The position numbers were made by a program, and so were the translations under genes. The notes under the pieces were generated by a model. The model did not search any database and was not told where the DNA came from. It saw only the letters and a list, made by a program, of their open reading frames with translations. Shown piece after piece: positions 10,350-44,618 of a stretch of DNA of 64,000 nt (the stretch's first letter is position 1; every line of letters begins with the position of its first letter). The stretch lies in IMG/VR virus record IMGVR_UViG_3300020050_017898. One strand, given 5' to 3'. The stretch is from an uncultured virus (IMG/VR IMGVR_UViG_3300020050_017898) (taxonomy: Duplodnaviria; Heunggongvirae; Uroviricota; Caudoviricetes).

Positions 10350-13118
10350 TTAAAGGTTTCCAATAGATACTCTAATATAGATAAAATTAACCGGATAAAC
10401 AGGCTTAACTCTTACAGAAATATTGTATTGAGTGGGATCTACTGAATCCTGCACAACAACAAGGTCTTTATAAGTTGTAATTAATTCTCTTAAGAAGCTA
10501 TTAAGAACAACAACTGCTCGTGCACTTAATGTTCCAATTAATGTATCATCTTCAGGTTGACCAATAAATCCGTCAAAACTATTACGGAATCTCTTAGCAA
10601 TTGCATCACGAATGAATACAATGGAAGCTTCGCGCTCTTCTACGAATCCACTTTGTGAAGTGGTAAGACCCCATTGAACTAATCCGCCACCCTGGACAGG
10701 CTGAAGTACAGTAACACCAGCAGTTGAAAGAGCTTCTCTGGTACGTTGCGGCAAGAGTTTGCTACGTTGAATAGTGAACCCAGTAAGTGTCTTATTGGTA
10801 AGAGGAATTGCTACTCGGGGTTGGCTAGCAAAGAAACCTGCACCCGCCGCGGCTTGATAGAAACCATCGATAAGAACATTACTACCATTGTTTACTACGA
10901 TTTCATCAGGATAGAAGTACATACAACGGAAAGTATTACCAAATCCGTCAGCTACACTGTAATTAGTAAGATCTTCAATATTGTTAGCTAGAACCTCAGT
11001 AACATTATCTCCTTGAATTCCTTCAAGTAATCCAATATCTTCAACAGCAGCAGGTTTAACACCAGTAAGATTTTCAGGTTTTAGACCCTTAATCGCACCA
11101 ATCATCGCAATACGTTCTTTTTTGTTTCTGATAGTACTCATGGTACGACAGTGAGCAACAGTGTTTTGGAAAATAACTGAGATGGTTTGCTTCGGAAGTG
11201 GAACAACTATGTCACATTCAACAGCTTCTAATGCTTCAAGAGCATTAACCCAACCAGCATCATAGAAATCAGCATCTTTTTCATCAACCACAGTGACTCT
11301 GAGTCCATAACCATTGGGAACAATGTTTTTGTTAACAACCACGAATGAAGAAGTATCGCTGGAATCTTGTACTTCATAACGAAGACCTGATTCAACTACG
11401 AAAGTCTTTGAAATGTTTAGCGTATTAGTACCGCTATTGTAACCAGTGATATCATAATAACCGTTATTAGTAGCAGTTCCAATAATTCTTAATTGTTTAG
11501 AAGTAAGATTTGATACCAGTGAGAAATCATATCCGGAGACGCCAATAGTGCTTTGGAAAGTACCGTTACCAGTACCAACGCCAGCAGTAAGAACGCCGTT
11601 TGTTCCAGTAACTAAAGGAACTGCAATTCCTGTCTGAGGGTCAAACATAGTAAAGGTTATACTTGAACCAGATGTAAAATCAGGGAACGTAGTTACTGAG
11701 AAATAAAGCTTACCATCTGAAACTGAAGTAACAGTAAAACTGCCATTATTAGCTACATTGTTAGCATCAATTACTTTTAGAGTTTTACCAACATAGGTAC
11801 TATCAAAAGCATTGGTGCCAGTAAAGATACCACGCTTAAGGAATGGAAGCTCGCGAGCCATATAGCCATCAAAACCATTATCAACAATTTCATCTTGTTG
11901 AATAACTGAATAGCTGAAACTATATCCACCAGGAGCTACAGTGTCATCAAAGATAAATTGATTAACAGTCGGAAATCCAACCTCCCCTAAACTATTAAAT
12001 TCTAGCTTATTAGGGAGTAATTGCTGCTCAACACTAGTGGTAGGATTTTCTACAAAGAAATGAATGGATTGATCAGGATCAGGAACAACGCCAGCCGGAA
12101 GAGGGAAAATAAAGTCATCATCTAAAGTGGATGTAGCTCTAACACCATCAGAAAGAATAAATGACTGACGACGTGGCATAGCAGGAGCCGCTTGAACGCA
12201 AGTAATTACTGGAGCACCATTTTGAAACGCGAGAGCAGCACCCTGAGAAAGAGTGTTATCAACTGAAGGTAGACCAAATTGGTTAACAACAGTATTCATA
12301 CTGTCAGTTACTAAAGTACCATTAATATTTTCTACTGGAATAAAGCTGGCAGAAAGAGAAGCATAACGACCTAATACCCCGCCTTTAACTTTAATAACAA
12401 ATGCGTCACCTTCACGGAAGGGTGAAACTGAGTTACCACCAGATTGTTCTTCTGAGATAGCAAAAGAAAGAATTCCATTGCTAACAGTATAACCATCAGC
12501 CACCCAAATAACAGGATTGCCAAGAGCATCTACAGGTGAACCAGAAGAGGTTCCAAAAGCCGCAAACTTAGCAGTTTTGTCAACAGGTTGATTACTCATG
12601 TTGCGCTGAACACCAACACAGCGGATAGTCCAGGTTTCAGTGGGGGCATTTGAATCTAAAAGTGTTAGACTATCAACTGTTCCTTTACCAACTGAACTAG
12701 ATGATTTAGTATAAAAAGCTCCACCTTGATCAACTAGATAAGCGGTTTGAAGTTCAATTTGACCAAGTTCGGGGTCGAGCCGAGCATCAAATTTATTTGA
12801 GAAAGGAAGGTTATCAACTGCTCCTTCAAGAACAGATAGTTTCACTCCATTAATAAATAGCTGTGAACGGTTAGAAACCAGAGGGAATCTAGTAAGCTGA
12901 AAGTGTCTGCCATCGGCATCAGCAGAACTGGTATAGTCTTCGTTAACACCATCAGTGCCATTGCCCGCAGCTGAAGAAACAACCGTTTCGCTGGCAAGAC
13001 CTTCACCAATTATTGCGACCATTCTAGTCGGTGAACCCGCAGCAACTCCACGAGATTCGGTTACAACTTCTGAAAATACTCCCGGATTTATGTTGCTTGC
13101 GCCATTGATATTAGCCAT
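10350..13118 (-). CDS. Contractile tail sheath protein
   Basis: 922 aa. N-terminal PGVFSEV; C-terminal sheath domain (PLTNKTLTGF...GVTVL...VQWGLTT...EASIVFIRDAI...YNISVRVKPVYPVNFIYI). Confidence 0.9.
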   Translation of the reverse strand: MANINGASNINPGVFSEVVTESRGVAAGSPTRMVAIIGEGLASETVVSSAAGNGTDGVNEDYTSSADADGRHFQLTRFPLVSNRSQLFINGVKLSVLEGAVDNLPFSNKFDARLDPELGQIELQTAYLVDQGGAFYTKSSSSVGKGTVDSLTLLDSNAPTETWTIRCVGVQRNMSNQPVDKTAKFAAFGTSSGSPVDALGNPVIWVADGYTVSNGILSFAISEEQSGGNSVSPFREGDAFVIKVKGGVLGRYASLSASFIPVENINGTLVTDSMNTVVNQFGLPSVDNTLSQGAALAFQNGAPVITCVQAAPAMPRRQSFILSDGVRATSTLDDDFIFPLPAGVVPDPDQSIHFFVENPTTSVEQQLLPNKLEFNSLGEVGFPTVNQFIFDDTVAPGGYSFSYSVIQQDEIVDNGFDGYMARELPFLKRGIFTGTNAFDSTYVGKTLKVIDANNVANNGSFTVTSVSDGKLYFSVTTFPDFTSGSSITFTMFDPQTGIAVPLVTGTNGVLTAGVGTGNGTFQSTIGVSGYDFSLVSNLTSKQLRIIGTATNNGYYDITGYNSGTNTLNISKTFVVESGLRYEVQDSSDTSSFVVVNKNIVPNGYGLRVTVVDEKDADFYDAGWVNALEALEAVECDIVVPLPKQTISVIFQNTVAHCRTMSTIRNKKERIAMIGAIKGLKPENLTGVKPAAVEDIGLLEGIQGDNVTEVLANNIEDLTNYSVADGFGNTFRCMYFYPDEIVVNNGSNVLIDGFYQAAAGAGFFASQPRVAIPLTNKTLTGFTIQRSKLLPQRTREALSTAGVTVLQPVQGGGLVQWGLTTSQSGFVEEREASIVFIRDAIAKRFRNSFDGFIGQPEDDTLIGTLSARAVVVLNSFLRELITTYKDLVVVQDSVDPTQYNISVRVKPVYPVNFIYIRVSIGNL

Positions 13119-13217
13119 ATACTATCCTTTAGATTAATGCACTAAATATATGCACTATTATTATAAACTAAAACTTTCTTTAAAAGAATTGCTTTTTATT
13201 AGTTAAAAAACTAACTC

Positions 13218-14027
13218 TCATTTTTTATTATTTTGCTCACCTGAATTTAGTAGTAAATCTAAATAAGAAACTTCTGAATGTATTGTTAAATTAGGAGATG
13301 TAGGCACCGAACTATCAATATTACCTATTGTTACATTAAAAAGAATTCTTTCAATATAATTATCAATTGGTATTTCTCTTTTCCATTCTGTACGAATATC
13401 TAAAGTTACAGTTACTTTATAAAATTTATTATTTCTATCATCGCCTTCTGATGGTGATGATATGCTAACGCCTTTTACAACTAAGCCAGCATGTTTATAA
13501 TCACTAAATCTAATATCAACAAAAAACATATATATTAATTCAGCTAAATCATCTCTGGTGCGTAATGATCTTGTTGTAATTTCTATATTAATAGTTCCTT
13601 CATTTATACCTTCAAATCTAAATGCTTTAGGAATTCTAATAGTCTTTGTATTACCATATCCATCTTCATAAATTCTATTTTCAGATACATAACTTCCCCA
13701 CTCTCTATTCATAGAGATAGGTACTGATCTCATTCCACCATTTTTTACTATAACTGAAGGAAAAAATTGAATATCTTGACGAAAAGCTTCTCCAATAAAA
13801 ATTCTTGTAGTAACATCATCACCAATGCCAGAACCTAATGGCAAGTCAGTATGATCAACAGTTTTTGGATATCCCCATTCGTCAGCTACATAATGATAAA
13901 ATGAATCTTTAGCAAAAAAATCACGCAACCCAGCAATAACCAATTCTTTGGGAAGAATAATCATAGATGTTTGTAACATCCCAAAGATTCGATATAAATC
14001 TGTATCGTACCAATTACCCGTTGCCAT
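13218..14027 (-). CDS. Tail terminator/completion protein (putative)
   Basis: 269 aa just upstream of the sheath. FPSVIV...GTINIEITTRSLRTRDDLAE pattern resembles tail terminator proteins. Confidence 0.55.
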   Translation of the reverse strand: MATGNWYDTDLYRIFGMLQTSMIILPKELVIAGLRDFFAKDSFYHYVADEWGYPKTVDHTDLPLGSGIGDDVTTRIFIGEAFRQDIQFFPSVIVKNGGMRSVPISMNREWGSYVSENRIYEDGYGNTKTIRIPKAFRFEGINEGTINIEITTRSLRTRDDLAELIYMFFVDIRFSDYKHAGLVVKGVSISSPSEGDDRNNKFYKVTVTLDIRTEWKREIPIDNYIERILFNVTIGNIDSSVPTSPNLTIHSEVSYLDLLLNSGEQNNKK

Positions 14028-17000
14028 TAAGTTACAGCTCCATGAACATATTCAATTACTATTGGTGAGAAAATTATTTCTGCATTAGTAGCAACTGATC
14101 TAGTAATTGCCATTTTAATTTGTAAATAAACAACTTGTGATTTAAAATGATTACTACAAAATCTAGTTACTGTTCCATCAGTTATTTCCATATAAGTAGA
14201 AGTAGGAATTAAACGGTTTGAGTTTAAATTAGTAATATTCATCGTAGCTGTCAAGATATTATCACTGACAAGCGTAGTATCCGCACCACCCACTGCTCTG
14301 GCATTAACATCAGTAAAATCATTAATATTTCCAGCCAGATGATTAGGAGTATATAACGACATCGACATCGTCGAAACAGGATCGAGAGTTGGTCCAACAG
14401 CTCCAGCAGAGGTTCTTAAGATAGCTCCAAGCTTCACATTTTTGATGATTACACCAGGTGGTAATTTATCAGAAAGATTAATTATTCCACTAAATACATC
14501 AGTTGCTGTAGCATTGAGTACAAATCCTTTAGTAAAGGTACTTCTATCATTAGGAACATCTAAGCGTCTAATTAATTTATTAGATGTAGTATCATCTACG
14601 AGTGTAGAGTTAAGTTCTCTTAGAGAGATAACTGCATAATTTTGTTGACCAACGTTAGCCGCTACAACACGAGGAGTATTGCCAAAATATCCTGGTATCA
14701 TAAATGAACTACCTTGATCATGTATAGTGTTATTTTTATAACTGACAATTCCGCCAGTTGAGGCTCCATCAGTGAATAAATCAGTGCCTAGCAAACTACC
14801 TAATTGAATGGTATTATTTTCTACACTTCCACCATAAACATAGTTACCAAAATCGACTGTAAAATTAGTATTTTCAAAACTATTATTACTCATCGTAACA
14901 TATTTATCAATATTGAACAAACCAGAATACAATCCAACCACAGTATTACCTTTAACAAATAATCTGCCAAATTTAAGCGGTGGAGTTGGAGATGGATTAT
15001 AGGTGCTATTTTTATGAGTTATTTTAATAGGGTAGTTATTAGTAGTATTATATCGATAATAATAAATATTACCATTATACTTATCTAAGATTAAAGAATT
15101 TTTATATTCAAAAGTATTATTTTCTATCTTGCTTTTCATATCTATGTTGCTTGATACAGCAGTAGATAACCAAGATAAAGTGTTATTATGAATAGAATAA
15201 TCCATAATGAAATCATTTAAACCATAATGGATTGTATTATTAGCCCACAGCGGAACTGAAGGACTAGTTGATTCTAGCGGACTATCAAAGCCATTGGTAT
15301 CACTAATATGAATGTAATCAATATTATTATTTGAAATAACAATATTTGATCCTGGTGTATCAGAGGATCCTGATTTTTGCCAACCAAAAATTCCCAAACG
15401 TTGACAAAAATTGTTTTTAATTTCACAGTTATTAAAAACAAATGATTTTTGATGGGTGATACCAGCAATTACAATTGATTTACTATTGACTGGCGAATCA
15501 GCAAATGCATTTCCAGTAACATATGCTTTATTGTTTTCTATTGTGAGATTATTTAATATAAATGGAAATGCATTTGGGGCTGTACCATTAAAATAAATAT
15601 TAGTTTCGCCACTGATTGATTTATTAACTATTGCAATCATTGCATTAGTTGTCTCAAATACATCATAAAACTTATTATTACTAATGTTTAAATTTTCAAT
15701 AACCAGGGCAGCATCACTATTGAAACTATCAACAGATCTAAAAACTTCAATTAAAATTTTTGGACATTGATTTGTAGTTGCGGTAATAAATTTATTATTT
15801 GTAATATTTATATTACTTGATTTATTGGCATTGACTCCGGATCCATAATTATCATACCAATATATTTCACCATCAATAGCTTTCAATATATCAGTAATAT
15901 CACTGGGATAGTTAGCAACACCTACTGTATAGTCATGCGAAGTATTAAGTGTACAACCATCAATAGTAATATTGCTATTATTTACATCTGAAGCAATAGC
16001 ATGTGTATATTCACCATTAAATTTACAATCTTTTACTATCACAGATCCGCCACTAGTGGTATCACTTATCATTAATAATGATGGTCCAAACCCAGCCTCT
16101 GATATTGTGCCAGCCGCCGTGAATCTACAATTTTCAAAAGAAATCGTACCATCACCATCTACTTCAGAAATTATGTGATGAATTTCTTTTAGTCGTGGAT
16201 TTGAATAAATAGATGCTGAAGCTTTATTGATAAAGAATGTACACTCAGAGTAGCTAACACTCCCACTAGAATTTATTGGATAGTTAGCATAAAAAGTACC
16301 AAATTCAGATGAATAATTACTAAACGTAACATTTTCATACCTAGAGTTACCTTTGGCACGGAAACTAGTAGCATAACTACCACTATTAAACATTTTTACT
16401 TTACAATTCTTTAAAATTAAATTAGTTGGTAAAAATGCTTCTTGAGATACACCAGCAATAATAAAAGTAGTTGTGTTATTTCCATCAATAACAGTTGGTG
16501 TGGCAAAACTATCATCCACATACCAACATGATAAGAATTCAGTAGTATTTCTAACATGTAGCTCTGTACTAATGCCAGTTTGATCACCTGCTCCAGAATT
16601 TAATAAAGCATAGTTTATCATTGACTGAACTGTTTTAAAATTATATCCAGTACCAGATCCATCAACAGTAGCAAAACCAGTTGAATCAGTATCATGCACA
16701 TATCTACGAATATCTACTGGATAAAATTCTGTTACAAAATTCGTTATTTTAATTGCGTAAAGAACTAATTGACTTTTATTTGCTCTTAATTCTGATAAAG
16801 TAGCATTATTAATTTTATAAGTGGTACTATCAAGAATTGAATCTACTTCTAAAGAAGTATCAGTTACTATATCTTTCTTTAAGAAAAATTCATAATCACC
16901 ATTTTCATTTAAAGTTAAATATAGTATTGCAAATATATCACCAGTATTAGTGATCTGCGGAACATACACAGCTTCATAATTTTTTAGTACAACTTTACCA

Positions 17001-19972
17001 TTAATAATGGCTGATCCACCATTCATTAAAAGCTTATTACTGAGAACTGGTGCACCCATAAAGTAATTACTTTCAGTGAAATAATTAGTTTCTATTAATT
17101 CCTGAGTACTATCTAAATTATTTATATCAAAACCATTAATGACACCATTAGTAGTGGATACTGCTGGCACTGCAGCAATATAATTTAAACTTTCAGTAGA
17201 TAGGTCTTTAACTCCAACGTTACCAAAATTTCTTAAATCTTTAGTAACTTTTAAAGTTTTACTAATATTAAAAATTGGTACCCAAACTCCTGCCAATGCC
17301 ATAAAACTAGAATTACCTTGTTGAGATGGAAACAATTGTATATCAACAACGCCAGAAGTTAAAGTTGGGGCATCCTTGGCAATAGTAAATTCTATATAAT
17401 CATTACCAGAAACATCAAATACTTTTAATGGCTCATTACATTTACCAATAGTAGTATTTCCAGATTTTGTTTGTGTTCTATTAGAAATAAATGCACTAAC
17501 TACTCCAGTAAGAGAATTATAAGTATAATTTAATCTTATATAAGGTTTAGTAGCATCACCAAAGCCCTTTAACTTTGGTGAAATATTATTGATCACATAA
17601 TAAGTACTAGTTCCGAGATTATTGGTCCATTGTTGATCTTCAAAAATTTGAGTACTATCAAATAATCTTAGTCTTTCATTACTGAAAGTTCTTCCCTGAT
17701 CATCAACCAAGATTTCAAACCATCTAAAAAAATCATCGACAGATGGAATTAAGTCAGAAATATGTTCATTGTTAAATGAAACAGTATCATTACTAAAATA
17801 TAATAACACCTCATCATTTACTGATATCCCTAGAAAAGCGCTAGATCCACTTGTTCCATTATTAGAGTGAACCGCATCTACTACCTGAATATCCGTATAA
17901 ACGCCTTCAGCACAACTACAGTCATAATATGAAACTCCAGAAATAATAAATCTACCAAATGATTTATTATCACCAGCAGTTTTCTTTTGGATAACAACTG
18001 ATTTACCTACTTTTAGTCCGCTAGCTGATAGATTTTTTTCTACTCTATAGGTAACAGAGGATCTTCCACCAGTATTAATAACTGATTCAAATTTAGCTAG
18101 CCAGTATCCATCACCGTTACTATCAATAGCTTGATCGATATCTTTAGCCAAATCATCAAATTCATTACCACCAACATAATAATTATTTTTACGTAAAGGT
18201 TTAAATAATTTTGTAGGCAATCCTGCCGATTCAACAGTGTAGTAAGTTGAATTATATACTGGAGAAGCATGATTACTACCGGCTGGTCCTAAACCAAGTG
18301 GATCTTTTCCTTCAATATCAAAATAAGTAAATACATCAATAACGTTATTTGGATATGTTGATTGACTTACATCTTGTTCATAATTGCCAACATCATCACC
18401 TGTAAGATCTTGTGATCTTATACCTCCAATGATAGAAAAACTTGCTCCATTAATTGGATCAAGAGCTAAACCGAATTCACCTTTATAACTAAAAGCTGAC
18501 ATTCGTAAATTAAAACCAATTTTTCTAAAGGCTTCATTTGTAGTAGTAACTATTGTTTCTAAATTATAAGCGCCAGGGGTGGTCCCACCATTGCCAGTAA
18601 CATCAATTACTGATAATTGATAACCATCAGTCACATTACCATTAGGATATAAAGCTAAATATAAATTATAATGAGCATTATCAAATTGACTGGCATCAAA
18701 ACCAATGCCAGTAACCATAGCACTCTTAGGATTGATAACTGTTAGTCCACGGCAATCTAATCCGTAATTAGTGTAAGCAGCTGTTACTGCCATTACACCA
18801 AATTTTTCGCTGTTGTCTAGTTTTTTAGTAATTCTAACTGAACAATTGTTATTGTATTCAATATTTTTACCAAATATTCTAATAGAATATGTCTTATATC
18901 CATCGGAGTCATACTTAATTTCTTTAATAGAATAAGCAGTTTCAATGTTAGTGTAAGTAACATGAATAATATCACCAGGTTTAACTGATCTAAATAAAGC
19001 ATCAAAAGTGTGATTCAGTCTTTGACTATTAGTAGGATTTAAACTAATAACATCATCGCCAGTATCAATGCTATCAATTGGCATACTTCCTAAACCATTT
19101 GTTCTTAAATAAGCAACGGCAGGAGTCGTAGGAACTATTTCTTCACCTTCAGTAAATGAAGATAATCTGGTAGCCTGACTAAGTTTACTAACGCCATTAG
19201 AATAAAAATTCTTTATTCTGCCACCAAAAGTTAAGAGTGAAGAATTATCTAAAAACTCTAATAGATCCTGAAGTCGAGGAATAGATCCAAAGGCATTAAA
19301 TTTAGAAGTATCTACATAAATTGCGCCAGCTGTATGGGCGTATTGGCTAGGATAAACCTGGCTATTAGTAGTGGTAATATTGGGTAAAGCTGAGCCTAAT
19401 CCGTCTTTCTTTTGATGATTAATATAATCACTATTAAGATCATTTAAAGAAGTAAATGCACTAGTACTTAAACGATTGGTACCAAAAACATTCTTGAAAA
19501 ATTCTAAATTATCATCAGATACATCAATATCTTTTAGATTATGTTTAAAAGCTGTACCATTAATATGATTAAGGATAGCAGTACCATTAGTTGATATCCA
19601 AGTAGATAAAGAGTCTAAATCAACATCTAGGGCTTCGATCGCATCATTAAGATCAGTCGTAGTAAAATTAAGAGCCAGTTTTGATTCAGCAATGGCTGCT
19701 GATCCAGATATCTGAGAGTTAGTAATAGGTAGAGTAACTAAACCAACAGTATTCAATACACTGGTTTTAGGACTTCCGTCTGCATTTAAAAGATAATCAA
19801 GGCGCTCAGCTAGATCATCACATGATCCTTGGACATTAATACCCAAAGTTGTTTCAATGGCAATGATAGCTTCTTTTTGAGCGTTGATTGCTTCACCACC
19901 AATTTCTGTGATATTATCAAATACAGTGGGAAGAGTTAGGTCATCATCTAATGAAGATGGAAAATTTGTCAT
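14027..19972 (-). CDS. Very large virion fibre/appendage protein with a probable right-handed beta-helix region
   Basis: 1981 aa. N-terminal attachment-like segment (FPSSLD...INAQKEAIIAIETTLG). Asn-rich repeats such as INITNNKF, LNISNNKF, LTIENNK, IVISNNNI in the C-terminal third suggest a pectin-lyase-like fold. Confidence 0.6.
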   Translation of the reverse strand: MTNFPSSLDDDLTLPTVFDNITEIGGEAINAQKEAIIAIETTLGINVQGSCDDLAERLDYLLNADGSPKTSVLNTVGLVTLPITNSQISGSAAIAESKLALNFTTTDLNDAIEALDVDLDSLSTWISTNGTAILNHINGTAFKHNLKDIDVSDDNLEFFKNVFGTNRLSTSAFTSLNDLNSDYINHQKKDGLGSALPNITTTNSQVYPSQYAHTAGAIYVDTSKFNAFGSIPRLQDLLEFLDNSSLLTFGGRIKNFYSNGVSKLSQATRLSSFTEGEEIVPTTPAVAYLRTNGLGSMPIDSIDTGDDVISLNPTNSQRLNHTFDALFRSVKPGDIIHVTYTNIETAYSIKEIKYDSDGYKTYSIRIFGKNIEYNNNCSVRITKKLDNSEKFGVMAVTAAYTNYGLDCRGLTVINPKSAMVTGIGFDASQFDNAHYNLYLALYPNGNVTDGYQLSVIDVTGNGGTTPGAYNLETIVTTTNEAFRKIGFNLRMSAFSYKGEFGLALDPINGASFSIIGGIRSQDLTGDDVGNYEQDVSQSTYPNNVIDVFTYFDIEGKDPLGLGPAGSNHASPVYNSTYYTVESAGLPTKLFKPLRKNNYYVGGNEFDDLAKDIDQAIDSNGDGYWLAKFESVINTGGRSSVTYRVEKNLSASGLKVGKSVVIQKKTAGDNKSFGRFIISGVSYYDCSCAEGVYTDIQVVDAVHSNNGTSGSSAFLGISVNDEVLLYFSNDTVSFNNEHISDLIPSVDDFFRWFEILVDDQGRTFSNERLRLFDSTQIFEDQQWTNNLGTSTYYVINNISPKLKGFGDATKPYIRLNYTYNSLTGVVSAFISNRTQTKSGNTTIGKCNEPLKVFDVSGNDYIEFTIAKDAPTLTSGVVDIQLFPSQQGNSSFMALAGVWVPIFNISKTLKVTKDLRNFGNVGVKDLSTESLNYIAAVPAVSTTNGVINGFDINNLDSTQELIETNYFTESNYFMGAPVLSNKLLMNGGSAIINGKVVLKNYEAVYVPQITNTGDIFAILYLTLNENGDYEFFLKKDIVTDTSLEVDSILDSTTYKINNATLSELRANKSQLVLYAIKITNFVTEFYPVDIRRYVHDTDSTGFATVDGSGTGYNFKTVQSMINYALLNSGAGDQTGISTELHVRNTTEFLSCWYVDDSFATPTVIDGNNTTTFIIAGVSQEAFLPTNLILKNCKVKMFNSGSYATSFRAKGNSRYENVTFSNYSSEFGTFYANYPINSSGSVSYSECTFFINKASASIYSNPRLKEIHHIISEVDGDGTISFENCRFTAAGTISEAGFGPSLLMISDTTSGGSVIVKDCKFNGEYTHAIASDVNNSNITIDGCTLNTSHDYTVGVANYPSDITDILKAIDGEIYWYDNYGSGVNANKSSNINITNNKFITATTNQCPKILIEVFRSVDSFNSDAALVIENLNISNNKFYDVFETTNAMIAIVNKSISGETNIYFNGTAPNAFPFILNNLTIENNKAYVTGNAFADSPVNSKSIVIAGITHQKSFVFNNCEIKNNFCQRLGIFGWQKSGSSDTPGSNIVISNNNIDYIHISDTNGFDSPLESTSPSVPLWANNTIHYGLNDFIMDYSIHNNTLSWLSTAVSSNIDMKSKIENNTFEYKNSLILDKYNGNIYYYRYNTTNNYPIKITHKNSTYNPSPTPPLKFGRLFVKGNTVVGLYSGLFNIDKYVTMSNNSFENTNFTVDFGNYVYGGSVENNTIQLGSLLGTDLFTDGASTGGIVSYKNNTIHDQGSSFMIPGYFGNTPRVVAANVGQQNYAVISLRELNSTLVDDTTSNKLIRRLDVPNDRSTFTKGFVLNATATDVFSGIINLSDKLPPGVIIKNVKLGAILRTSAGAVGPTLDPVSTMSMSLYTPNHLAGNINDFTDVNARAVGGADTTLVSDNILTATMNITNLNSNRLIPTSTYMEITDGTVTRFCSNHFKSQVVYLQIKMAITRSVATNAEIIFSPIVIEYVHGAVT

Positions 19973-24173: not shown

Positions 24174-24226
24174 ATATATTGCGCAGGTAACTATACAATA
24201 TCCATCTGTCAAGGTGAGTTTATTAA

Positions 24227-27612: not shown

Positions 27613-29042
<1,430 letters not shown>

Positions 29043-30496: not shown

Positions 30497-31518
30497 ACTA
30501 AACCTACATTCTTGATATTATTCATGTTTTCCTTTAAAATTCTATTTAATGTTCTATCAGAAACGCAGTAAAAATCAGCAATTTCTTTATTTGTAAATAA
30601 TTTGCTTTTACGAAGATCTAATACTTGCCGCTTTTCTTTAATTGTTAAACTTTTACAAATACTATTCTGCTTTTTAATACCTGTAATATTAGTCCAAGAT
30701 TTTCCACTTCTTATATTTTTTATTATATAAATAGCAGTATCTAATTTGGCACTAATTTCTTTGTCTGAAAAAATATTTAACAATTCAAAAATTTCTTTTA
30801 CTTTATTTTCAGAAATATTATTCTCTTTTGTTAAATTTTTTACTTCTACATTCATTTTGACCAATATTTTTCTAATGAATTTTTTATTCATTTTATATAA
30901 AGTTGCAAGATCATCTAATGTATGTCCATTTTGATATTTTTTTGCCATTTCTTTATTTCTATTTTCAATTTCAGATTTTGTTGGCATTATTAATTTGTAA
31001 TTAACATTAGCGTCATCACGCCAGTGCCTGCCAGACAGTATTGCACTAATAGTAGTTTTACTTACATTGAATGATGTCGCAATATAAGAATGCGGATATT
31101 TACATTCTTTATATAACTTTTTAATTTCATTTACCTGACCTAAAGTAAGTTTAGCTAAAGGTGCGTTTTCTCCTCGCCACATTTCAGAAAGATGATTACG
31201 CATGGCTTCTCCACAAGGTCCTTCGCCACCATCTCTAATATTATATACAGTATATTTTTTTAATTCTCTAAAATACTTAATATAAAATATTTCAGCCTTA
31301 TTAGCCTCTTCTCTTGAATTGAATATTTCAATAGGAACAAAAGAAAAATTATTTATACCATACTTATTCATAGCAGCTTTAAGATAAGTAAAATTTTTAT
31401 TTACAGATTTTTTCCAATGCTCTTTTTTTCTTCTTATCAAATCATGAGTAATTCCAATATAAATATGATTAGACTTAACATTATTATATATAAAATATAG
31501 GTAAGTTGTTTCACTCAT
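30493..31518 (-). CDS. Free-standing GIY-YIG homing endonuclease with HTH repeats
   Basis: YLYFIYN...IYIGIT...RRKKEH...E...YN followed by [10 protein letters not shown] and several HTH-like units. ATG 31518 overlaps the fibre stop codon (ATGA). Confidence 0.85.
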
Positions 31519-33758: not shown

Positions 33759-34070
33759 TTACCAAGCATCTGCTCTTACAACAATTGGACCAGTACTACC
33801 TGATTTTATTCTAAACCACATAGCACTAATTGTTCTATGATCAAAACTCATGCCTGCTGAAGCTTTAGCAGAATCAAGTTCTCCATGAACCGTAATACCA
33901 TTGAAACTATATTCGACTACTCCAGTACCTTCATTAAGAAGAGTTAAACCAGTATTAGTAAATACAAGGACACAGTCGGCACCATAGCCATCTAAACTAT
34001 GACCACCAAAGTCAGTCGCAGTAACACTTATTTTTTTATAAAAATTATAATCAACGCCTTTTTTTGCCAT
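33759..34070 (-). CDS. Small beta-rich virion protein (putative)
   Basis: 103 aa, AGGA RBS, heads the fibre operon; VVEYSFNGITVHGEL...MWFR. Confidence 0.55.
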   Translation of the reverse strand: MAKKGVDYNFYKKISVTATDFGGHSLDGYGADCVLVFTNTGLTLLNEGTGVVEYSFNGITVHGELDSAKASAGMSFDHRTISAMWFRIKSGSTGPIVVRADAW

Positions 34071-34111: not shown

Positions 34112-34849
34112 TTATGGGATATGTTTCCAAGTTCTACGCTCAATTATATCTCTGGCAGTTTGTTTATGTATTTTATATGTTTTTATTAAATCTACAACAA
34201 AATCACTTTTATTTTTTGTAGTTATTTTATATTGATTTCTTATAAAAATAACTTCTTTTTCTGTTAATTTTGCTTGTGAATGATTTTCACCGCTGGCAGC
34301 GATAGACATTTTTACTCTTGTCTCATCACTTGGTTTTATCCCTTTACAAGCCTTACTCATATTTCTTTTATATTTTTCATCCCAAACATGATTTTTCAGA
34401 TACTGATTTCCAGTCATTCTTTCTCGCATCCAATTTGGATTTTCTTTATGAAAATTTTTTAGCCATTCAGATTTTTTAATTTTTAACTCTGGAGTATTTT
34501 GAGCAGCAATCATTTTAGCAATTGTTTCTTCAGATGGTCTCATACCACCTTCGCCACCAATATTGCAATTATACCCATATTTTTTATTATTTGAATTAGA
34601 TAACAAAATTAATTTAGTTTCCATAATTAAAGCCTCTGATTCTGACTCAAGCTCATAAATAACATCAAATGAAAAATTGTGCTCACCATATTTGTTCATT
34701 GTTTTATTTATTGGATATAATTTAGTTTTGGCATGTCTTTTGTGTTCTTCCCATCTCCTATCAGGATTATTAGCTTTTCCAATATATATTTTTTTAGTAA
34801 TTAAATTTGTTATTACATACACATACGATTTGATATCAGAAGTGTCCAT
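34112..34849 (-). CDS. Free-standing GIY-YIG homing endonuclease with NUMOD3-like repeats
   Basis: YVYVITN...IYIGKA...RRWEEH...E...GYN; PSEETIAKM and PSDETRVKMS repeats; GENHSQAKLT. Confidence 0.88.
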   Translation of the reverse strand: MDTSDIKSYVYVITNLITKKIYIGKANNPDRRWEEHKRHAKTKLYPINKTMNKYGEHNFSFDVIYELESESEALIMETKLILLSNSNNKKYGYNCNIGGEGGMRPSEETIAKMIAAQNTPELKIKKSEWLKNFHKENPNWMRERMTGNQYLKNHVWDEKYKRNMSKACKGIKPSDETRVKMSIAASGENHSQAKLTEKEVIFIRNQYKITTKNKSDFVVDLIKTYKIHKQTARDIIERRTWKHIP

Positions 34850-36729: not shown

Positions 36730-37088
36730 TTAGCGATAATCTTTCTTATAGTACGAGGTTTAACATTATAACCACTGCCAACTTCCTCTTGAGCTAAAGT
36801 TGCTTTTGTGCCGTTAGCTAACAAAGTATCATATTTTGTTTTGATTTCTTCTATATCTGAATTTACTAACTTAGCATTAGGAGCATTTTCTCCGCTATGA
36901 TTTAATGTATATAAAATTTTAAGCTTTGCTTTAATTTTTTCTAATTCATCGGCAGGAATTAACTCTGGTATTTTGCGATGTAAAGTGCTTTCTCCTATTG
37001 TGGTAATTTTAACAATTTGTTTTACAGAATATTGAGCTGTACGATATAGTTTAATTGACTCTTCTAAAATTTCTTCTTTTGATTTCAT
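36726..37088 (-). CDS. HTH DNA-binding protein related to homing-endonuclease C-terminal modules
   Basis: Two HTH-like segments and GENAPNAKLV, the same motif seen in the three GIY-YIG proteins; no nuclease domain. Confidence 0.6.
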   Translation of the reverse strand: MKSKEEILEESIKLYRTAQYSVKQIVKITTIGESTLHRKIPELIPADELEKIKAKLKILYTLNHSGENAPNAKLVNSDIEEIKTKYDTLLANGTKATLAQEEVGSGYNVKPRTIRKIIAK

Positions 37089-38626
37089 TTGATTAGCTTT
37101 CCCATTCTGTATCGTGGCATTACTATATTTTTATTTGCAAAATATTTTTTCAAACAATCATTAACACTATCATATGACACATTTCGATCATCAGCAACTT
37201 TTTGAATATTAGTTTCAATTACATTTTCATAATCATGAATGATTTGTTTCTTTTCTGATTCTTCTAAAAATGTTCTTTTAGCTTCTTTATCCTTTTTAGC
37301 TCTACCCTGTTGTCTTTCTTCCTTGCTTTTACCGCCTCGCGACGGAGAAACTCTTTCAGGTCTTATTAGGGTAAGATTTTGACGATAAAATTTCTTAATA
37401 ATTTCCTGAATTTTCCATTTTGGAGGACCAAATTTTTTGGAAAGATCATCGGTAGAGACATCAGGATTGTTAAAATTATATTTTATGATTTTTTCCATCT
37501 CAGTATCATCATACTTAGCTCGATCAAAATCATACCTGGGATCATTTACATAAAAAGGATCTTGTAATTCTTTAAAGATTAAATCTTTAGAAGCATCTTC
37601 AATAGTTTTACGCTCAACATCAAAAATATCACCTATCTCTTGAGTAGTATAATGTTTTCCAGTATCAGGATTAATTGTAACTCTAAATTCTTTAATAACA
37701 TCACGATCTTCTTGATTCTTAAATAAACTATCTTTACTTTGTTGAAATTTTATTATTAATCTTGGTTTTAAAGAATCGTTTATTTTTTTAATTTCTTCTT
37801 TTGAAATTTTAGACAAAATATTAGAAATTTGTTTATATGATAATTTATATTTTATTGCTAATTCATATTGAAAATATTCTCCAGTTTTATAATGATTAAT
37901 TATTTCTTCATTTCGCTTAAGTTTTTGTTCTGGAGTCATCGTCTTAATTATATATTTACGTTTTCTACCATTTAAATATGATCTTTCAAGAAGCAGTTGC
38001 TTAATCACATCAGGACTTACTCCGTAAAGCTCTCCAATAGCTCGGGCAGTTATCTTATATGGAACATAAAGCTGTCTGGCTTCTTCAGCCTGTTCATTAG
38101 TAAGCTGGGCAATTGCAGAATTCTCTCCACGATGTTTTTCAGACAGAACATCTTTGACTTCTTCACTAACTGTGTGAAATCCGCCTCCACCTCTTCCACC
38201 ATCATCAATATTAAATACTCTCCATCGATTACCATTATCAATGGCTTTTTGACGTTCAGATTTAATCATTTGCATTTCAACATCAGCTGCCAAATATCTA
38301 TTATCATAAGTACTATGATGATCAAAATCAAATACATCTGTTCCTTCTTTATTCATTACATTATAAAGATCTTGATTGTGATGAGTAAAATCAGTATTAG
38401 TACCCATATATTTATGGGTCTTCCATCTCTCATTAATATTCCAGGTGATACCAATATAAATATCACCAGTAGGTTTATGAGTAATAGTATAGACATGAGT
38501 TACTCTATCATTAAGAGGAATTCCATCTTCTTCTGTAATTTCATAATCTGAAATAGGTAAATCAACTTCTTCTAATGTATAATTTTGATTGATTACTTCT
38601 TGTATATCTTTTATATGTGAATCCAT
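37085..38626 (-). CDS. Large GIY-YIG endonuclease with multiple HTH units
   Basis: HVYTITH...IYIGIT...ERWKTH...E...FN; GENSAIAQLT; several HTH-like repeats; 513 aa. Confidence 0.8.
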   Translation of the reverse strand: MDSHIKDIQEVINQNYTLEEVDLPISDYEITEEDGIPLNDRVTHVYTITHKPTGDIYIGITWNINERWKTHKYMGTNTDFTHHNQDLYNVMNKEGTDVFDFDHHSTYDNRYLAADVEMQMIKSERQKAIDNGNRWRVFNIDDGGRGGGGFHTVSEEVKDVLSEKHRGENSAIAQLTNEQAEEARQLYVPYKITARAIGELYGVSPDVIKQLLLERSYLNGRKRKYIIKTMTPEQKLKRNEEIINHYKTGEYFQYELAIKYKLSYKQISNILSKISKEEIKKINDSLKPRLIIKFQQSKDSLFKNQEDRDVIKEFRVTINPDTGKHYTTQEIGDIFDVERKTIEDASKDLIFKELQDPFYVNDPRYDFDRAKYDDTEMEKIIKYNFNNPDVSTDDLSKKFGPPKWKIQEIIKKFYRQNLTLIRPERVSPSRGGKSKEERQQGRAKKDKEAKRTFLEESEKKQIIHDYENVIETNIQKVADDRNVSYDSVNDCLKKYFANKNIVMPRYRMGKLIK

Positions 38627-38842: not shown

Positions 38843-39632
38843 TTAGGGGTTAACGAGAGTTGATTTACGACCGATGGCAACTGAACGGGAGTTCAAAATG
38901 CCAATACCCAGCTCGCTTGTGACAACCCATCCTAATTTAAGTTGTTTCGGCTCATCAGCAGGAATAACCTGGATGTCCTGGCGAACCGGCATAACACCAA
39001 CGAATTCCGGATCAGCACAACCATAAACGGTTCCCGGGGGAACAAGTTTGGAAACGATAATATCAGCACCAAAGATCTGACCATAAAGACCAGTCTGAAG
39101 AACTTCGCGGAGAGAAACCGGATCAAAATCACCACCGGTTGAACCCTGACCACCACCAGCACCCCATTTGAGAATATCGGTAAACTCAGAGATATTCATA
39201 AAATATTTAGCAGTAACGTTATCCCAACCGTCAATCTGTTTCTTGATATCGATAAGGTCGCGCTTGAGGAGACCTGAATCGTTGATATCCTGAGCGGTAT
39301 TTTCAACAGTGGCGGCGATATCGAGAGCGCCGAAGAAGTTTAGATCTTCCTGAGCCATAAGTTCCTGACGAGCTTTCTGGATGGCACGGTCAATCGCATT
39401 GAAGCGGCGTCTACGAGCTTCTGAATAACGAATGGTGGGGTTTGAGAAGAGCTCAAAGAGTTCAACTGAAGCGCGCTCACCAAAGACGCGTGATTCCGGA
39501 CCTGAGCCATGGGCTGAAACAACGACAGCCTGGACATCGATATCAAGTTCGTAGGTAACGAATTCGCCCTGTTCAACGGGGTCAACAACTAGACCACGAC
39601 GAGCAACTCCGTGGTAATCAAGATTTTTACGA
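38843..39632 (-). CDS. Major capsid protein, exon 2
   Basis: The frame of track ORF 38843-39358 stays open to 39632: RKNLDYHGVARRGLVVDPVEQGEFVTYELD...FELFSNPTIRYSEARRRRFNAIDRAIQKARQELMAQED...GWVVTSELGIGILN, an HK97-fold pattern. Confidence 0.88.
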
Positions 39633-40817
39633 CAAATTGTTAAGGTGATTAACCTACTAAGTCATTTCTGCTTAGTTCCTTACATTTTTGTAAGGGTCAG
39701 ACTGTATCATCATTATTAGAAGAGATTTCTTCTAAAATGTTTGGCGTACTCGTCGTTGAGGATTCAGGCATGAGTTTATACTTCATAGATTCTACTACAT
39801 GAGGTCTGATAATATCACTAAGTTTCTGTGTATTAATTTTATTAAGAGCAATCATCCAATAACCAACACCTTTATATTTATATGGAGCAACTGTTGCATC
39901 TAAGTTGAAACATCTTTTAAGGTAATCGACTAAGTCTTCATTATCTTTTTTTGTAAAACCCATCGAACAAATTCTCATATTAACACCTTCATTTAAATTT
40001 CCATCATCTTGTATCCAAACTGCTAAAGCAAGAGGAGTAAAGTACATGTCTAAATTTTTAGGTATTGATTTAATTTTTCCTTGATAAAACATTTTGCCAA
40101 ATTGATTAAAATCTTGATGACAAATTGTTGTAGTTTGAAGCATTATGGAATTTCCACGTTTATCTACATTTTCTCTGTAGTTATTAATGAAAGGATCCCA
40201 CATTGTTACATTCCAATGGAAATATTGTTCTTGTTTTTTACAGTGACCAAATGAAAGTTTATAACTTTGTTTTGCTGTATCTTTATATAAGCAACCATCT
40301 CCGAGGAGTTTTCCAACCAAAATTTGTTTTTGAATTGAATTTAATGGTGTTTGTCTTAGAATATCGTATTTTCTCATGGAGCAAATTACTTCTCGCTTAT
40401 TTGCTTTTAACCATTTAACAATTGGAGATGATGATATTTCATACCAATCTGCAATTTCTTTTACTGACATTCCTTTGTCGTGCTTATCTAACATACTTTG
40501 TAATTGATCAGGAGTAAAATCGCTCATATAATTCTTGCGCCATTTTACATTTTCTTGTTTTAAGATTTTTCTTACTGCCTCGTATCCAATTTTGGTACGA
40601 TCAGAAATTTCTTTTATTGTGAGACCTGATTCATATAAAGTTACTAAATCTTTATTGTTCATGCTTGCCTTTCCTGCTGATTGTCTATATCATCTTCATT
40701 CTGTTACTTTAACTGTGGTGAGATAGTTTCTTAAGACTACCTATAGGGTGTTAAAGTGATGAAGCTTTTAGAGTTTCCAGCATATAGCCAAATTTTAATC
40801 CCACTCGTTAGAGGTTA
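39633..40817 (-). mobile_element. Group I intron (1185 nt) in the major capsid gene
   Basis: P1 AAUCCCAU/GUGGGAUU with a U.G pair at the 5' splice site; P10 ACGA/UCGU; P element AUGCUGGAAA; Q element AAUCAGCAGG; P3 UUUGGC/GCCAAA; R-like CUCAACGAC; S-like GAUACAGUCU; terminal G at 39633. Splicing restores the reading frame. Confidence 0.9.
39697..40662 (-). CDS. Intron-encoded two-motif LAGLIDADG homing endonuclease with N-terminal HTH units
   Basis: ILVGKLLGDGCL and LALAVWIQDDGN motifs; the 3' end of the ORF runs through the intron R and S elements. Confidence 0.88.
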   Translation of the reverse strand: MNNKDLVTLYESGLTIKEISDRTKIGYEAVRKILKQENVKWRKNYMSDFTPDQLQSMLDKHDKGMSVKEIADWYEISSSPIVKWLKANKREVICSMRKYDILRQTPLNSIQKQILVGKLLGDGCLYKDTAKQSYKLSFGHCKKQEQYFHWNVTMWDPFINNYRENVDKRGNSIMLQTTTICHQDFNQFGKMFYQGKIKSIPKNLDMYFTPLALAVWIQDDGNLNEGVNMRICSMGFTKKDNEDLVDYLKRCFNLDATVAPYKYKGVGYWMIALNKINTQKLSDIIRPHVVESMKYKLMPESSTTSTPNILEEISSNNDDTV

Positions 40818-41035
40818 ATGGGATTTGCCATCGCCTGAGCGAGAGCATATTTTGCATGCTGATCATGAATAGCAGCTTCAATGAGTTCGCCAGCTTTTTC
40901 TTCTGAAACTGAAGAAGCTAGTGACTGTGAGGTGGGAACACCTTCTTGAAGAACTGAGGCATAACGAATAATCTGTTGAAGAGCATCGGTCTTGCTGGAG
41001 GCGTTTAGTTCGCCTTTTGAATTGAATGATACCAT
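40818..41035 (-). CDS. Major capsid protein, exon 1
   Basis: AGGA RBS; MVSFNSKG...ALAQAMANP(I). 218 nt + 790 nt = 1008 nt, giving a 335-aa protein with junction MANPI|RKNLDY. Confidence 0.88.
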
Positions 41036-43902: not shown

Positions 43903-43937
43903 TAAAAAAGGAAAGAAGAACCGAAGCTCTTCTTTCC
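43903..43937 (-). terminator. Intrinsic terminator after the 217-aa gene
   Basis: Minus strand ggaaagaagagc-TTCG-gttcttctttcc-tttttt. Confidence 0.88.
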
Positions 43938-43964
43938 ATGATTTAATCAGATTAAACTGATATA

Positions 43965-44618
43965 TTAGGTCTCAACTTCCCAGTGGATAACAGCTTCGCG
44001 GATACCTTTGTTGCTGTTAAGAGCTGAAGCAAACTTCGGCTGAGTATTGACATGTGAACCTGAGGTCTCAAAGCCCATGAAACGAGCAACAACAAGTGAA
44101 GCTTCGAAAGATGAAGCAGCGTTCGGAGTGAGAATACCAGCAGTAGTTGCATAAAGTGGTGAACCAGCATCGAGTGAGGTATTGGTAAGAGTAAGACCAG
44201 TTGAAGCGTTAGTATCAACGGCATCAAGAGTTACAGCATAGATACCAGGGGCATCCCAGCAAGTAATTTTACCAGAGCGATTAGCGGTACCAGGACCAAC
44301 CTGTGAACCAGCAACATCTTTACCAGCAGTTCCACCAACTACTTTACCGAAAACGGTACCGTAATAGGTCGTACCTTCATCCGCAAGGAATAAAGGACGT
44401 TTGCCAGAAGCAAGAGTTTTGGTTACAACAGTGCGCTTAAGCACTGAGGAAGGTAGAAGATAACCATCAGAAGCTGAATCAGCAGCTGAAATGTCAGCTG
44501 CAAGAGCTACTGAGGTAAGAGTAACAACTTCTCCACCTTTAAATGAAGAAACCTGTGCATCAAGACCATCAAGAGTGCCGTAAGGACGACCGTTGGGGAA
44601 TTTTACGATTAGAGCCAT
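43965..44618 (-). CDS. Head decoration/cement-like protein (putative)
   Basis: 217 aa, Ala/Gly/Thr-rich, strong RBS and own terminator. FLADE...SGKITCW...G.Y...GSPLYA...GILT resembles beta-tulip decoration proteins; lies near the capsid gene. Confidence 0.55.
   Translation of the reverse strand: MALIVKFPNGRPYGTLDGLDAQVSSFKGGEVVTLTSVALAADISAADSASDGYLLPSSVLKRTVVTKTLASGKRPLFLADEGTTYYGTVFGKVVGGTAGKDVAGSQVGPGTANRSGKITCWDAPGIYAVTLDAVDTNASTGLTLTNTSLDAGSPLYATTAGILTPNAASSFEASLVVARFMGFETSGSHVNTQPKFASALNSNKGIREAVIHWEVET

Follow-up and report, generated by a model that had tools for sequence, protein, structure and literature searches.

Why does a single tripeptide, Asp-Gly-Tyr (DGY), recur in the structural proteins of an uncultured tailed phage? 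The original prediction, made on the window (the whole analyzed stretch of 64,000 nucleotides), listed 17 DGY motifs in ten exterior virion proteins and proposed a short surface motif read by one partner. Full-text literature searches for a published explanation of the motif gave nothing relevant.

DGY is over-represented in ten proteins of the window

All 17 DGY motifs are indeed in frame and belong to ten minus-strand proteins (Table 1). The motif is missing from the other 45 ORFs of our 55-ORF set (20,107 aa), a zero count that is not significant alone (about 1.6 expected). Based on per-protein composition, 2.78 DGY are expected in the whole set and about 1.2 in the ten carrier proteins, while the dipeptide (Markov) expectation is 3.7. 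The excess corresponds to a Poisson p of 7e-9, or 6e-5 once corrected for all 8000 tripeptides. DGY ranks 4th among the window tripeptides, after GIQ, IQG and QGI, which are collagen repeats. The enrichment thus survives multiple-testing correction, and it also withstood 3000 within-protein shuffles: none reached 17 DGY (the highest count was 11), and none yielded a tripeptide of any kind with a p as low as that of DGY. At the DNA level, the degenerate pattern GAYGGNTAY has 18 matches on the minus strand, of which 17 are in frame 0 and the other is at 24198, where there is no ORF; the plus strand has none.

The labels 'neck protein' and 'adaptor' given originally are backed by fold matches and the label 'sheath' by a PHROG match. 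The neck protein consists of an FN3-like N-terminal domain (the FN3 match is weak), a middle domain and a stopper-like neck fold, which bears a Cys4 knuckle and three HxH motifs. In the adaptor, an Ig/macroglobulin-like domain occupies the N-terminus, and the DGY lies in the conserved linker joining the two domains. Both sheath sites are N-terminal of the conserved sheath core.

Table 1. DGY-carrying proteins and other features of the window (residue numbers, with window nucleotides in parentheses)
Feature	Position	Strand	DGY sites	DGY in aligned sequences	Matches and remarks
Tube-position protein	9700-10335		0		
Tail sheath, 922 aa	10350-13118	-	208 (12489-12497), 417 (11862-11870)	417: also in G003 orthologue	phrog_2839 tail sheath, residues 745-920; annotated sheaths (tblastn)
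269-aa protein, putative 'terminator' (original label)	13218-14027	-	122 (13656-13664)	31/33	Between giant fibre and sheath
Giant fibre-like protein, 1981 aa	14027-19972	-	357 (18896), 449 (18620), 621 (18104)	357: 1/45; 449: 25/45; 621: 35/45	
Fibre-like protein, 432 aa	20552-21850	-	35 (21740-21748)	8/16	
Neck protein, 523 aa	21860-23431	-	20 (23366), 177 and 180 (DGYDGY, 22886-22903), 221 (22763), 279 (22589)	20: 42/70; 177: 37/70; 180: 51/70; 221: 67/70; 279: 47/70	AF2 pLDDT 86.8; Foldseek: neck and stopper proteins of phage 812, phiCD508, Pam3
Head-tail adaptor, 301 aa	24227-25132	-	112 (24791-24799)	54/57	AF2 pLDDT 76.6 (linker 105-113 below 50); residues 129-294, VIA Z 8-9 vs T4 gp13 and other adaptors
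Collagen-like fibre, 477 aa	27609-29042	-	16 (28989-28997)		Pfam Collagen 7.5e-48; site directly ahead of Gly-X-Y repeats
Collagen-like + DUF5907 fibre, 746 aa	31515-33755	-	637 (31839-31847)		Pfam DUF5907 1.4e-25, Collagen 2.7e-19
103-aa protein	33759-34070	-	27 (33984-33992)	17/35 (gap in 13)	
Capsid pieces	38843-39358, 40808-41035		0		
217-aa protein, putative 'decoration protein' (original label)	43965-44618	-	51 (44460-44468)		Upstream of major capsid gene; G003 orthologue (290779-291450) has 2 DGY
Tyr/dual-specificity phosphatase-like	58777-59565	-			Pfam Y_phosphatase3 9.8e-12, PTP-SAK 5.7e-10

The motif is exact and shared by a clade of huge phages

The window is part of a large clade of uncultured huge phages with hundreds of members and contigs of up to about 490 kb. 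In the neck loci of 79 relatives, DGY is by far the most over-represented of the 8000 tripeptides (1084 observed vs 79.6 expected), although these pooled counts contain orthologous sites and hence are non-independent. With identical proteins removed, 932 DGY remain vs 70 expected (z = 103), and the next tripeptide has z = 28. The signal is specific to the exact triplet. DGY is enriched 13.3x in these loci, whereas all one-residue variants fall within 0.4-3.2x, including NGY, EGY and DAY (0.8x each), DGW (0.9x), DGF (1.0x) and DSY (1.5x). The flanks are almost uninformative (<=0.37 bit per position within 10 residues on either side). Asp is coupled with Tyr: with both Asp and Gly in place, position three is Tyr in 494 cases and Phe in 5, and without Asp it is Tyr in 29 and Phe in 21. 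Codons at 483 conserved sites match genome usage, as anticipated for a constraint that acts on the protein.

Conservation in homologs was mixed. Some sites are nearly invariant (31/33, 54/57 and 67/70), and others, in fibres, turn over, down to 1/45. Among fibres it is the number of sites rather than their positions that is kept: aligned giant-fibre sequences have 3-9 DGY apiece (mean 5.0), distributed over dozens of alignment columns.

An artefact, whether it stems from chance, composition, a motif in the DNA or domains that are repeated or paralogous, has next to no chance of accounting for these data. There are grounds for suspicion: the proteins were initially picked after the motif had been spotted, the relatives' counts share orthologous sites, and a few sites belong to paralogous DUF5907 repeats, among them the DGY segment of the 746-aa fibre, a paralogue of DGY-bearing DUF5907 segments in fibres of the complete 448-kb relative G003. 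Against this stand the shuffles, the corrected significance, new DGY sites in G003 baseplate and fibre proteins, the lack of plus-strand and out-of-frame matches in the window save for one in non-coding minus-strand DNA, and background codon usage. Moreover, DGY segments have no domain in common apart from orthologues, overlapping segments and the few DUF5907 paralogues, and the FN3 HMM has no matches elsewhere. As far as the shuffle, strand/frame, codon and domain tests reach, an artefactual origin is refuted.

The excess is limited to the structural module

In G003, the 300-400 kb region contains 46 DGY vs 5.3 expected, including sites on baseplate and fibre proteins that the window lacks. 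The remainder of this genome (~105,000 aa) has 12 vs 12.7 expected (0.95x), i.e. outside the structural module DGY is near expectation and is not avoided. The same boundary is evident in 58 loci centred on a GT-B glycosyltransferase gene. The 10 kb upstream hold 683 DGY vs 40.3 expected, and downstream there are 19 vs 25.9 (0.73x, not significant); individual loci have 5-23 and 0-2, respectively. The original prediction had named a generic beta-turn preference, visible in unrelated phages, as one threat to its case. Three of four such phages have no excess (LR745208, 3 vs 2.4; Myrna, 1 vs 1.6; LE2-3, 4 vs 3.9), and T4 is weakly enriched (10 vs 2.7, three of the ten being in paralogous Seg endonucleases). 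The DGY excess is real, exact and limited to one clade and its structural module. At 13-17 times expectation, residue-exact and in one gene module, it is a very strong sequence signal.

DGY sites in structural models

The sheath, neck and adaptor sites fall in accessory parts, outside the recognized core domains, and these parts are probably outward-facing. Out of six modelled sites, two are at beta-hairpin turns (neck 20 and 221), two in an irregular loop (neck 177 and 180), and two (neck 279 and adaptor 112) in conserved loops with pLDDT below 50. What stands of the proposed surface motif is that it is real, exact and in accessory parts; that it is read at all, let alone by a single partner, and that its sites are exposed is what we infer beyond that.

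The hairpin sites bring up an explanation that needs no reader. Asp and Tyr, placed at i and i+2 across Gly, might by themselves make up a complete surface element, either a hairpin staple in which the two share a hydrogen bond or a small patch that binds cations or glycans. The clade would have re-used such an element many times on accessory domains, to add stability or to provide weak multivalent adhesion. The Asp-Tyr coupling suits a side-chain pair, and the strongly conserved positions fit as well. Furthermore, loss of one residue often leaves the other two in place (DGQ/DGS at neck site 20, SGF/AGF at 177, DAY/DQY at 279), suggesting that local structural constraints operate too. In the same loci, HxH tripeptides follow DGY as the second most enriched class (HTH 10.5x, HNH 5.4x, HSH 4.9x), and the weak T4 excess points the same way. 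However, a favourable turn should be general, and DGY is not enriched in the rest of G003 or in three unrelated phages (0.6-1.3x). The conservative turn and aromatic variants NGY, DGF and DGW show no enrichment, four of the six modelled sites are outside hairpins, and fibre positions turn over. We regard this explanation as possible, though doubtful.

The poorly modelled loops are relevant to another explanation, in which one accessory virion protein would bind the DGY loops of the sheath, neck and baseplate. It might be a decoration or fibre protein, for instance a collagen-like fibre or one of the small proteins of 103-113 aa. The motif is limited to co-assembling proteins, two sites are in conserved loops whose place in the monomer AF2 fails to resolve, as would be expected of interface segments, and tandem DGY pairs 3-5 residues apart are over-represented. 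Nevertheless, a tripeptide with uninformative flanks would be a very small protein-binding epitope, and the proposed binders bear DGY themselves, making such docking unlikely.

A conserved glycosyltransferase as the candidate reader

Our preferred reading is that DGY is a short tag recognized by a clade-specific factor, most plausibly for Tyr glycosylation (probability roughly 0.4). The tag, common to the whole clade, would be an exact protein-level signal positively selected on accessory parts of neck, sheath, baseplate and fibre proteins. The best candidate reader is a conserved GT-B glycosyltransferase, whose gene lies where the tail gene block ends. It would glycosylate the Tyr hydroxyl, its specificity being set by Asp and Gly, so that DGY would constitute a three-residue sequon. 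This specific version, a Tyr O-glycosylation (or other Tyr-modification) sequon marking outward virion parts for the clade's own GT-B enzyme, we put forward tentatively.

The GT-B gene closes the DGY-rich tail block in all 38 testable relatives: 30 contigs have it some 43-54 kb downstream of the neck gene, and it is likewise present in the remaining eight of eight long-enough contigs. The window ends ahead of the expected position, and the co-occurrence rests on the relatives. Both Glu residues of the EX7E motif are invariant, and the protein matches solved GT-B transferases, chlorovirus B736L among them. An NDP-sugar dehydratase gene adjoins it, conserved in G003 and in a second relative, G006. 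G003 encodes the GT-B, two GT2 enzymes and a GDP-mannose-dehydratase-like protein at 365-374 kb, along with RmlA/RmlD-like proteins at 214-216 kb. The control huge phage LR745208 has neither the DGY excess nor the clade's GT-B transferase. What a sequon would leave in sequences is present: an exact motif containing an acceptor, with little flanking consensus, and a defined target set (the G003 module) within which positions turn over, as in the fibres.

Several observations weigh against this reading. The absence of DGY avoidance outside the module counts against a promiscuous cytosolic reader. So does the frequent retention of two motif residues where the third is lost count against a tag that is only read. 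G006 keeps the GT-B and dehydratase genes and lacks the GT2 partner genes, yet still has the DGY excess. The weak excess in T4 tail proteins has no known reader. In addition, the GT-B gene is a core gene of the clade, and its co-occurrence with DGY is inseparable from shared ancestry; no lineage was found with either the excess or the GT-B gene but not the other. Moreover, the substrates of glycosyltransferases from phages can be DNA or glycans of the host surface.

If the sequon is genuine, phages would have their first sequence code for modifying virions, and with it a new system of protein glycosylation directed at Tyr. Modified virion surfaces would become predictable from sequence, a conserved orphan glycosyltransferase would gain a function, and tyrosine-directed glycosylation in bacterial viruses would be opened to experiment. 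If DGY is instead an intrinsic binding or stabilizing site, it would represent a new minimal structural element. Both can be tested on recombinant domains, without culturing the phage.

Other chemistry at the motif

Phosphorylation or other chemistry of the DGY tyrosines, controlled by the phage PTP-like phosphatase, is very unlikely. Such a gene is present in the head module of both the window and G003 (277196-277948), away from the DGY-rich block, and no protein kinase family was found among the 148 G003 proteins scanned (about 189-391 kb; a further 193 ORFs of 120 aa or more were outside the scan). PTP-fold enzymes often have non-protein substrates. The phosphatase raised in the original prediction is conserved in a relative, but nothing ties it to DGY. 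Another option listed there, isoAsp formation at Asp-Gly, leaves the Tyr requirement unexplained, as DGF is at 1.0x.

Comparison with known motifs and systems

HxH motifs bind metal in phage fibres and needles, e.g. T4 gp37 and gp12. DGY likewise has ligand-type residues at i and i+2 and is enriched in the same proteins. Unlike HxH, it also occurs in the sheath, the adaptor linker and the FN3 hairpin rather than just in trimeric fibres, its invariant Gly is unexplained by a metal site, and metal binding is here hypothetical. The Asp-box (S-x-D-x-G-x-T-W) is a short hairpin motif recurring in unrelated folds. Similarly, DGY is a short Asp/Gly/aromatic motif found in varied protein contexts, partly at hairpin turns. 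In contrast to the Asp-box, it is not favoured in proteins generally, being unenriched in the rest of G003 and in three of the four unrelated phages.

For the preferred reading, parallels come from protein glycosylation. In mycobacteriophages, virions are reported to be glycosylated by phage-encoded glycosyltransferases (Freeman et al. 2023, Cell Host Microbe 31:1216, as cited in PMC12582341 and PMC10568470). Phage-encoded glycosyltransferases are common to both systems, with virion proteins modified there and modification proposed here. Together with sugar-nucleotide genes, these enzymes are found in the relatives G003 and G006 rather than in the window. The mycobacteriophage glycans reportedly decorate Ser/Thr-rich C-terminal regions of the capsid and tail-tube subunits and follow no tripeptide code. 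Provided that DGY marks targets, capsid and tube proteins would not be among them here (0 DGY). DGY differs from the sequon N-X-S/T and from the Bacteroidota O-glycosylation motif in that Tyr, at position 3, supplies the hydroxyl and Gly takes the middle position; the target proteins belong to phage virions and are produced in the cytoplasm, and the glycan is a proposal. What it shares with both is a minimal three-residue code with a hydroxyl-bearing residue and no flanking consensus, scattered over many unrelated target proteins. The Bacteroidota motif, given as (D)(S/T)(A/I/L/V/M/T) in PMC8550257, resembles DGY further in starting with Asp.

DGY is over-represented in the window

From the window we selected 55 ORFs greedily and without overlap (20,107 aa). 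They contain 17 Asp-Gly-Tyr (DGY) tripeptides spread over ten minus-strand proteins and none in the remaining 45 ORFs, an absence that alone is not significant. All 17 sites of the original prediction were recovered at the same coordinates and in exactly the same ten proteins. The expected number is 2.78 based on per-protein composition and 3.7 when conditioned on dipeptides. Among the 8000 tripeptides DGY ranks fourth (Poisson p 7e-9, Bonferroni 6e-5). The three tripeptides above it (GIQ, IQG and QGI) are collagen repeats, reflecting the very frequent G-I-Q repeat unit of one collagen-like fibre (the one lacking the DUF5907 label in the table). Tyr follows 17 of the 89 Asp-Gly dipeptides, and Asp precedes 17 of the 58 Gly-Tyr dipeptides. 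In 3000 within-protein shuffles the DGY count never exceeded 11, and a tripeptide as extreme was seen in none of them. The enrichment thus withstands both shuffling and correction for 8000 tripeptides; composition, dipeptide expectation and shuffles rule out chance or composition as its source.

Features of the window and of G003, a complete 448-kb relative
Feature	Position	Strand	Remarks
Tape measure protein	6143-8575		
Tail sheath	10350-13118	minus	conserved core = residues 745-920
269-aa protein	13218-14027		
Giant fibre	14027-19972		1981 aa
Neck protein	21860-23431	minus	523 aa; model pLDDT 86.8; fold matches neck/stopper proteins of phages 812, phiCD508 and Pam3
Head-tail adaptor	24227-25132		301 aa; model pLDDT 76.6; N-terminal Ig/macroglobulin-like domain
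Cold-shock-domain gene	26259-26486		Pfam CSD, 1e-16; between adaptor and fibre genes
Collagen-like fibre	27609-29042		
Collagen-like fibre with DUF5907 repeats	31515-33755		
Three GIY-YIG homing endonuclease ORFs and one HNH-like ORF	30493-31530, 34112-34849, 37085-38626, 26772-27104		scattered in structural module
Split capsid gene	38843-41035	minus	N-terminal piece 40808-41035; C-terminal piece 38843-39358
LAGLIDADG endonuclease ORF	39697-40662		between capsid pieces
PTP/dual-specificity-phosphatase-like gene	58777-59565; G003 277196-277948		head module of both phages
FGE-sulfatase-like (C-type-lectin-fold) protein	G003 364207-364986 (L103:4207-4986)		after last DGY-rich tail protein, before GT-B gene

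The excess is restricted to one clade and one gene module

Homologues of the neck protein number at least 645 (E <= 0.001) and occur on contigs of up to about 490 kb. Isolated phages were rejected as close relatives: tblastn with the neck protein gave no match among them, and the sheath matched over its C-terminal domain only. We sampled 80 loci, each spanning +-10 kb around the neck gene, and counted 79, leaving out the near-twin of the window. These hold 1084 DGY against 79.6 expected, with an excess in every locus. After removal of identical proteins 932 remain against 70 (z = 103), the runner-up tripeptide being HTH (z = 28). The neck gene is also present on two contigs from metagenome-assembled genomes, one labelled Terriglobia (256 kb), the other Chitinophagales (383 kb) (L108, L109). 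Probably these are phage sequences that were binned with bacteria, but their labels could be a hint to the host.

The window aligns collinearly with positions 275-344 kb of G003 (447,763 bases, 706 ORFs, 137,268 aa). The 300-400 kb region codes for 46 DGY against 5.3 expected, whereas the rest of the genome has 12 against 12.7; a DNA-pattern scan of the whole record shows the same clustering. The carriers are the sheath, the giant fibre, a Baseplate_J-like protein, two very large baseplate/fibre proteins and DUF5907/collagen fibres. Several of them map past the end of the window and therefore provide evidence independent of its sites.

As controls we used 50-kb structural regions from phages unrelated to the clade. 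The observed and expected numbers of DGY are 3 and 2.4 in LR745208 (another huge phage), 1 and 1.6 in Myrna, 4 and 3.9 in LE2-3, and 10 and 2.7 in T4. The T4 excess is weak, and three of its ten sites come from paralogous Seg endonucleases sharing DGYMGSG. Given these counts, the beta-rich virion proteins of unrelated phages do not display the same DGY frequency; an equal frequency would have spoken against the original prediction. The Seg proteins of T4 are GIY-YIG enzymes; the GIY-YIG and HNH-like ORFs of the window are devoid of DGY.

The constraint acts on the exact tripeptide

The degenerate pattern GAYGGNTAY matches the window 18 times, always on the minus strand. Seventeen of these matches are in frame and the remaining one (24198) lies in a non-coding stretch without an ORF; the plus strand and the other reading frames of coding sequences gave no match in the window. 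Codon usage at 483 conserved DGY sites of the relatives is ordinary (GAT 82% versus 82% gene-wide, TAT 77% versus 80%, Gly codons similar). A DNA-level motif is ruled out by these observations, and the earlier claim that the constraint is on the protein holds.

Related tripeptides in the relatives' loci occur at 0.8x (NGY, EGY and DAY), 0.9x (SGY and DGW), 1.0x (DGF) and 1.5x (DSY) of expectation, and the reversed YGD at 1.2x. The motif is therefore exact. Its surroundings are hardly constrained, as each of the +-10 flanking positions carries <=0.37 bit. When +-40-aa segments flanking 63 sites were compared by BLAST, the matches were limited to orthologues, overlapping segments and a few DUF5907/small-protein paralogues, which argues against a shared repeat or domain. 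Likewise, an HMM of the FN3-like domain of the neck protein matched no other protein in the window or G003. By these comparisons, no common domain accounts for the sites.

Taken together, the data show selection for an exact tripeptide, DGY, in a single clade and a single gene module. As an explanation, a preference of protein folding in general, such as that for a turn plus an aromatic residue, fails because of this restriction, seen in the control phages and the rest of G003, and because conservative variants show no excess.

Placement and conservation of DGY sites

Both sheath sites are N-terminal of the conserved core, and all five DGY of the neck protein fall within its N-terminal 281 residues. 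In the neck model site 20 is placed in the A-B hairpin of a predicted N-terminal FN3-like domain, site 221 in another hairpin, sites 177-182 in an irregular loop, and site 279 in a conserved loop with pLDDT <50. The adaptor DGY is modelled in a conserved low-confidence linker joining the Ig-like domain to the adaptor core; the C-terminal domain of this protein matches head-tail adaptors including T4 gp13 (Z 8-9). Such placements suggest that the sites are surface-exposed.

At some sites DGY is retained almost throughout: the one in the 269-aa protein (31/33), the adaptor site (54/57) and neck 221 (67/70). Conservation among homologues, one of the checks proposed along with the motif, holds for these sites but is intermediate for others, namely neck 20 (42/70), 177 (37/70), 180 (51/70) and 279 (47/70) and giant-fibre 449 (25/45) and 621 (35/45). 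Giant-fibre orthologues contain 3-9 DGY each (mean 5.0) in dozens of alignment columns, a number inflated by alignment error in this long and divergent protein, and most of these positions are lineage-specific. The giant fibre keeps the number of DGY while their positions change.

Loss of DGY often leaves two of its residues in place (DGQ/DGS, SGF/AGF, DAY/DQY), which indicates that local structure also constrains the sites. Sequences with Asp and Gly have Tyr at the third position in 494 cases and Phe in 5; those without Asp have Tyr in 29 and Phe in 21. Asp and Tyr thus appear coupled, by a statistic that is not clean, as one site dominates and the sequences are related. Neighbouring DGY 3-5 residues apart are over-represented in counts that include orthologues more than once. 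The apparent conservation 'island' around DGY carries little weight; it is partly circular, since columns were picked for recurrent DGY.

The partial retention of residues, together with the positional conservation of sites and the fact that DGY is not avoided outside the structural module, favours the main rival explanation. According to it, Asp and Tyr would form an intrinsic microsite that acts as a hairpin staple or as a small patch binding cations or glycans. We regard it as possible, yet doubtful.

Several other features of these genes were noted. In its C-terminal half (residues ~324-520) the neck protein has an invariant Cys4 knuckle (C324, C326, C338, C341) together with three HxH motifs that are likewise invariant (H476/H478, H498/H500, H518/H520), suggesting metal sites. 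Of the 79 relatives' loci, 47 have homologues of the cold-shock-domain protein. Both pieces of the split capsid gene match a single capsid protein in G003, which is intact and 336 aa long, and the LAGLIDADG ORF between them suggests an intron or intein insertion; an Rfam scan of the window returned 0 families and hence does not confirm an intron.

A candidate reader of the motif

Directly after the DGY-rich tail block, G003 codes for the FGE-sulfatase-like protein, a GT-B glycosyltransferase (365715-366854), two GT2 proteins and a GDP-mannose-dehydratase-like protein. Other parts of the genome hold RmlA/RmlD-like genes and a GT92-like one. Both Glu residues of the EX7E motif are invariant in the GT-B family, which matches solved GT-B transferases including chlorovirus B736L. 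In 30 contigs a pattern scan placed GT-B some 43-54 kb downstream from the neck gene, and it is also present there in all eight further contigs that are long enough (38/38 overall). In 58 full GT-B-centred loci the 10 kb upstream contain 683 DGY versus 40.3 expected, and downstream 19 versus 25.9; individual loci all have between 5 and 23 on the upstream side and 0-2 on the downstream side. GT-B itself has none (3.3 expected).

GT2 (PF00535) was rejected as the reader: present in G003 and two other relatives (G002 and G004), it is absent from a further one, G006, despite the DGY excess there. G006 keeps GT-B and the dehydratase, and lacks the FGE-sulfatase-like protein at the corresponding place. 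Synteny across the relatives thus bears out a conserved GT-B, but no conserved transferase pair. LR745208 has neither GT-B nor a DGY excess. The link between DGY and GT-B is a co-occurrence within one clade, inseparable from common descent, and the window ends short of the GT-B position.

In our preferred interpretation DGY would be a tag for a clade-specific factor that reads it, most plausibly through O-glycosylation, in which the conserved GT-B would glycosylate the hydroxyl oxygen of the DGY Tyr (probability roughly 0.4). The closest known systems appear to be three-residue glycosylation sequons (PMC8550257) and virion glycosylation in mycobacteriophages (Freeman et al. 2023, as cited in PMC12582341 and PMC10568470). 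A full-text search for a DGY/Asp-Gly-Tyr motif in phages gave nothing relevant among the matches listed. Docking of an accessory protein on DGY is unlikely, and less probable than the tag or the microsite. A phosphotyrosine cycle involving the PTP-like gene is more improbable still: the search for modifying enzymes in G003 yielded the GT-B, GT2 and GT92-like glycosyltransferases but no kinase among the 148 ORFs scanned of the 341 listed (>=120 aa).

At about 189-391 kb (L094-L104), G003 also codes for two ClpP, trigger factor, DnaJ, peptide deformylase, IF3 and Met aminopeptidase, as well as a TubZ-like tubulin, DNA pol III alpha, a patatin-like phospholipase and an apiosidase-like hydrolase. 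An RNA repair set in the same region comprises PNKP, RNA ligase, Thg1-like and CCA-adding enzymes.
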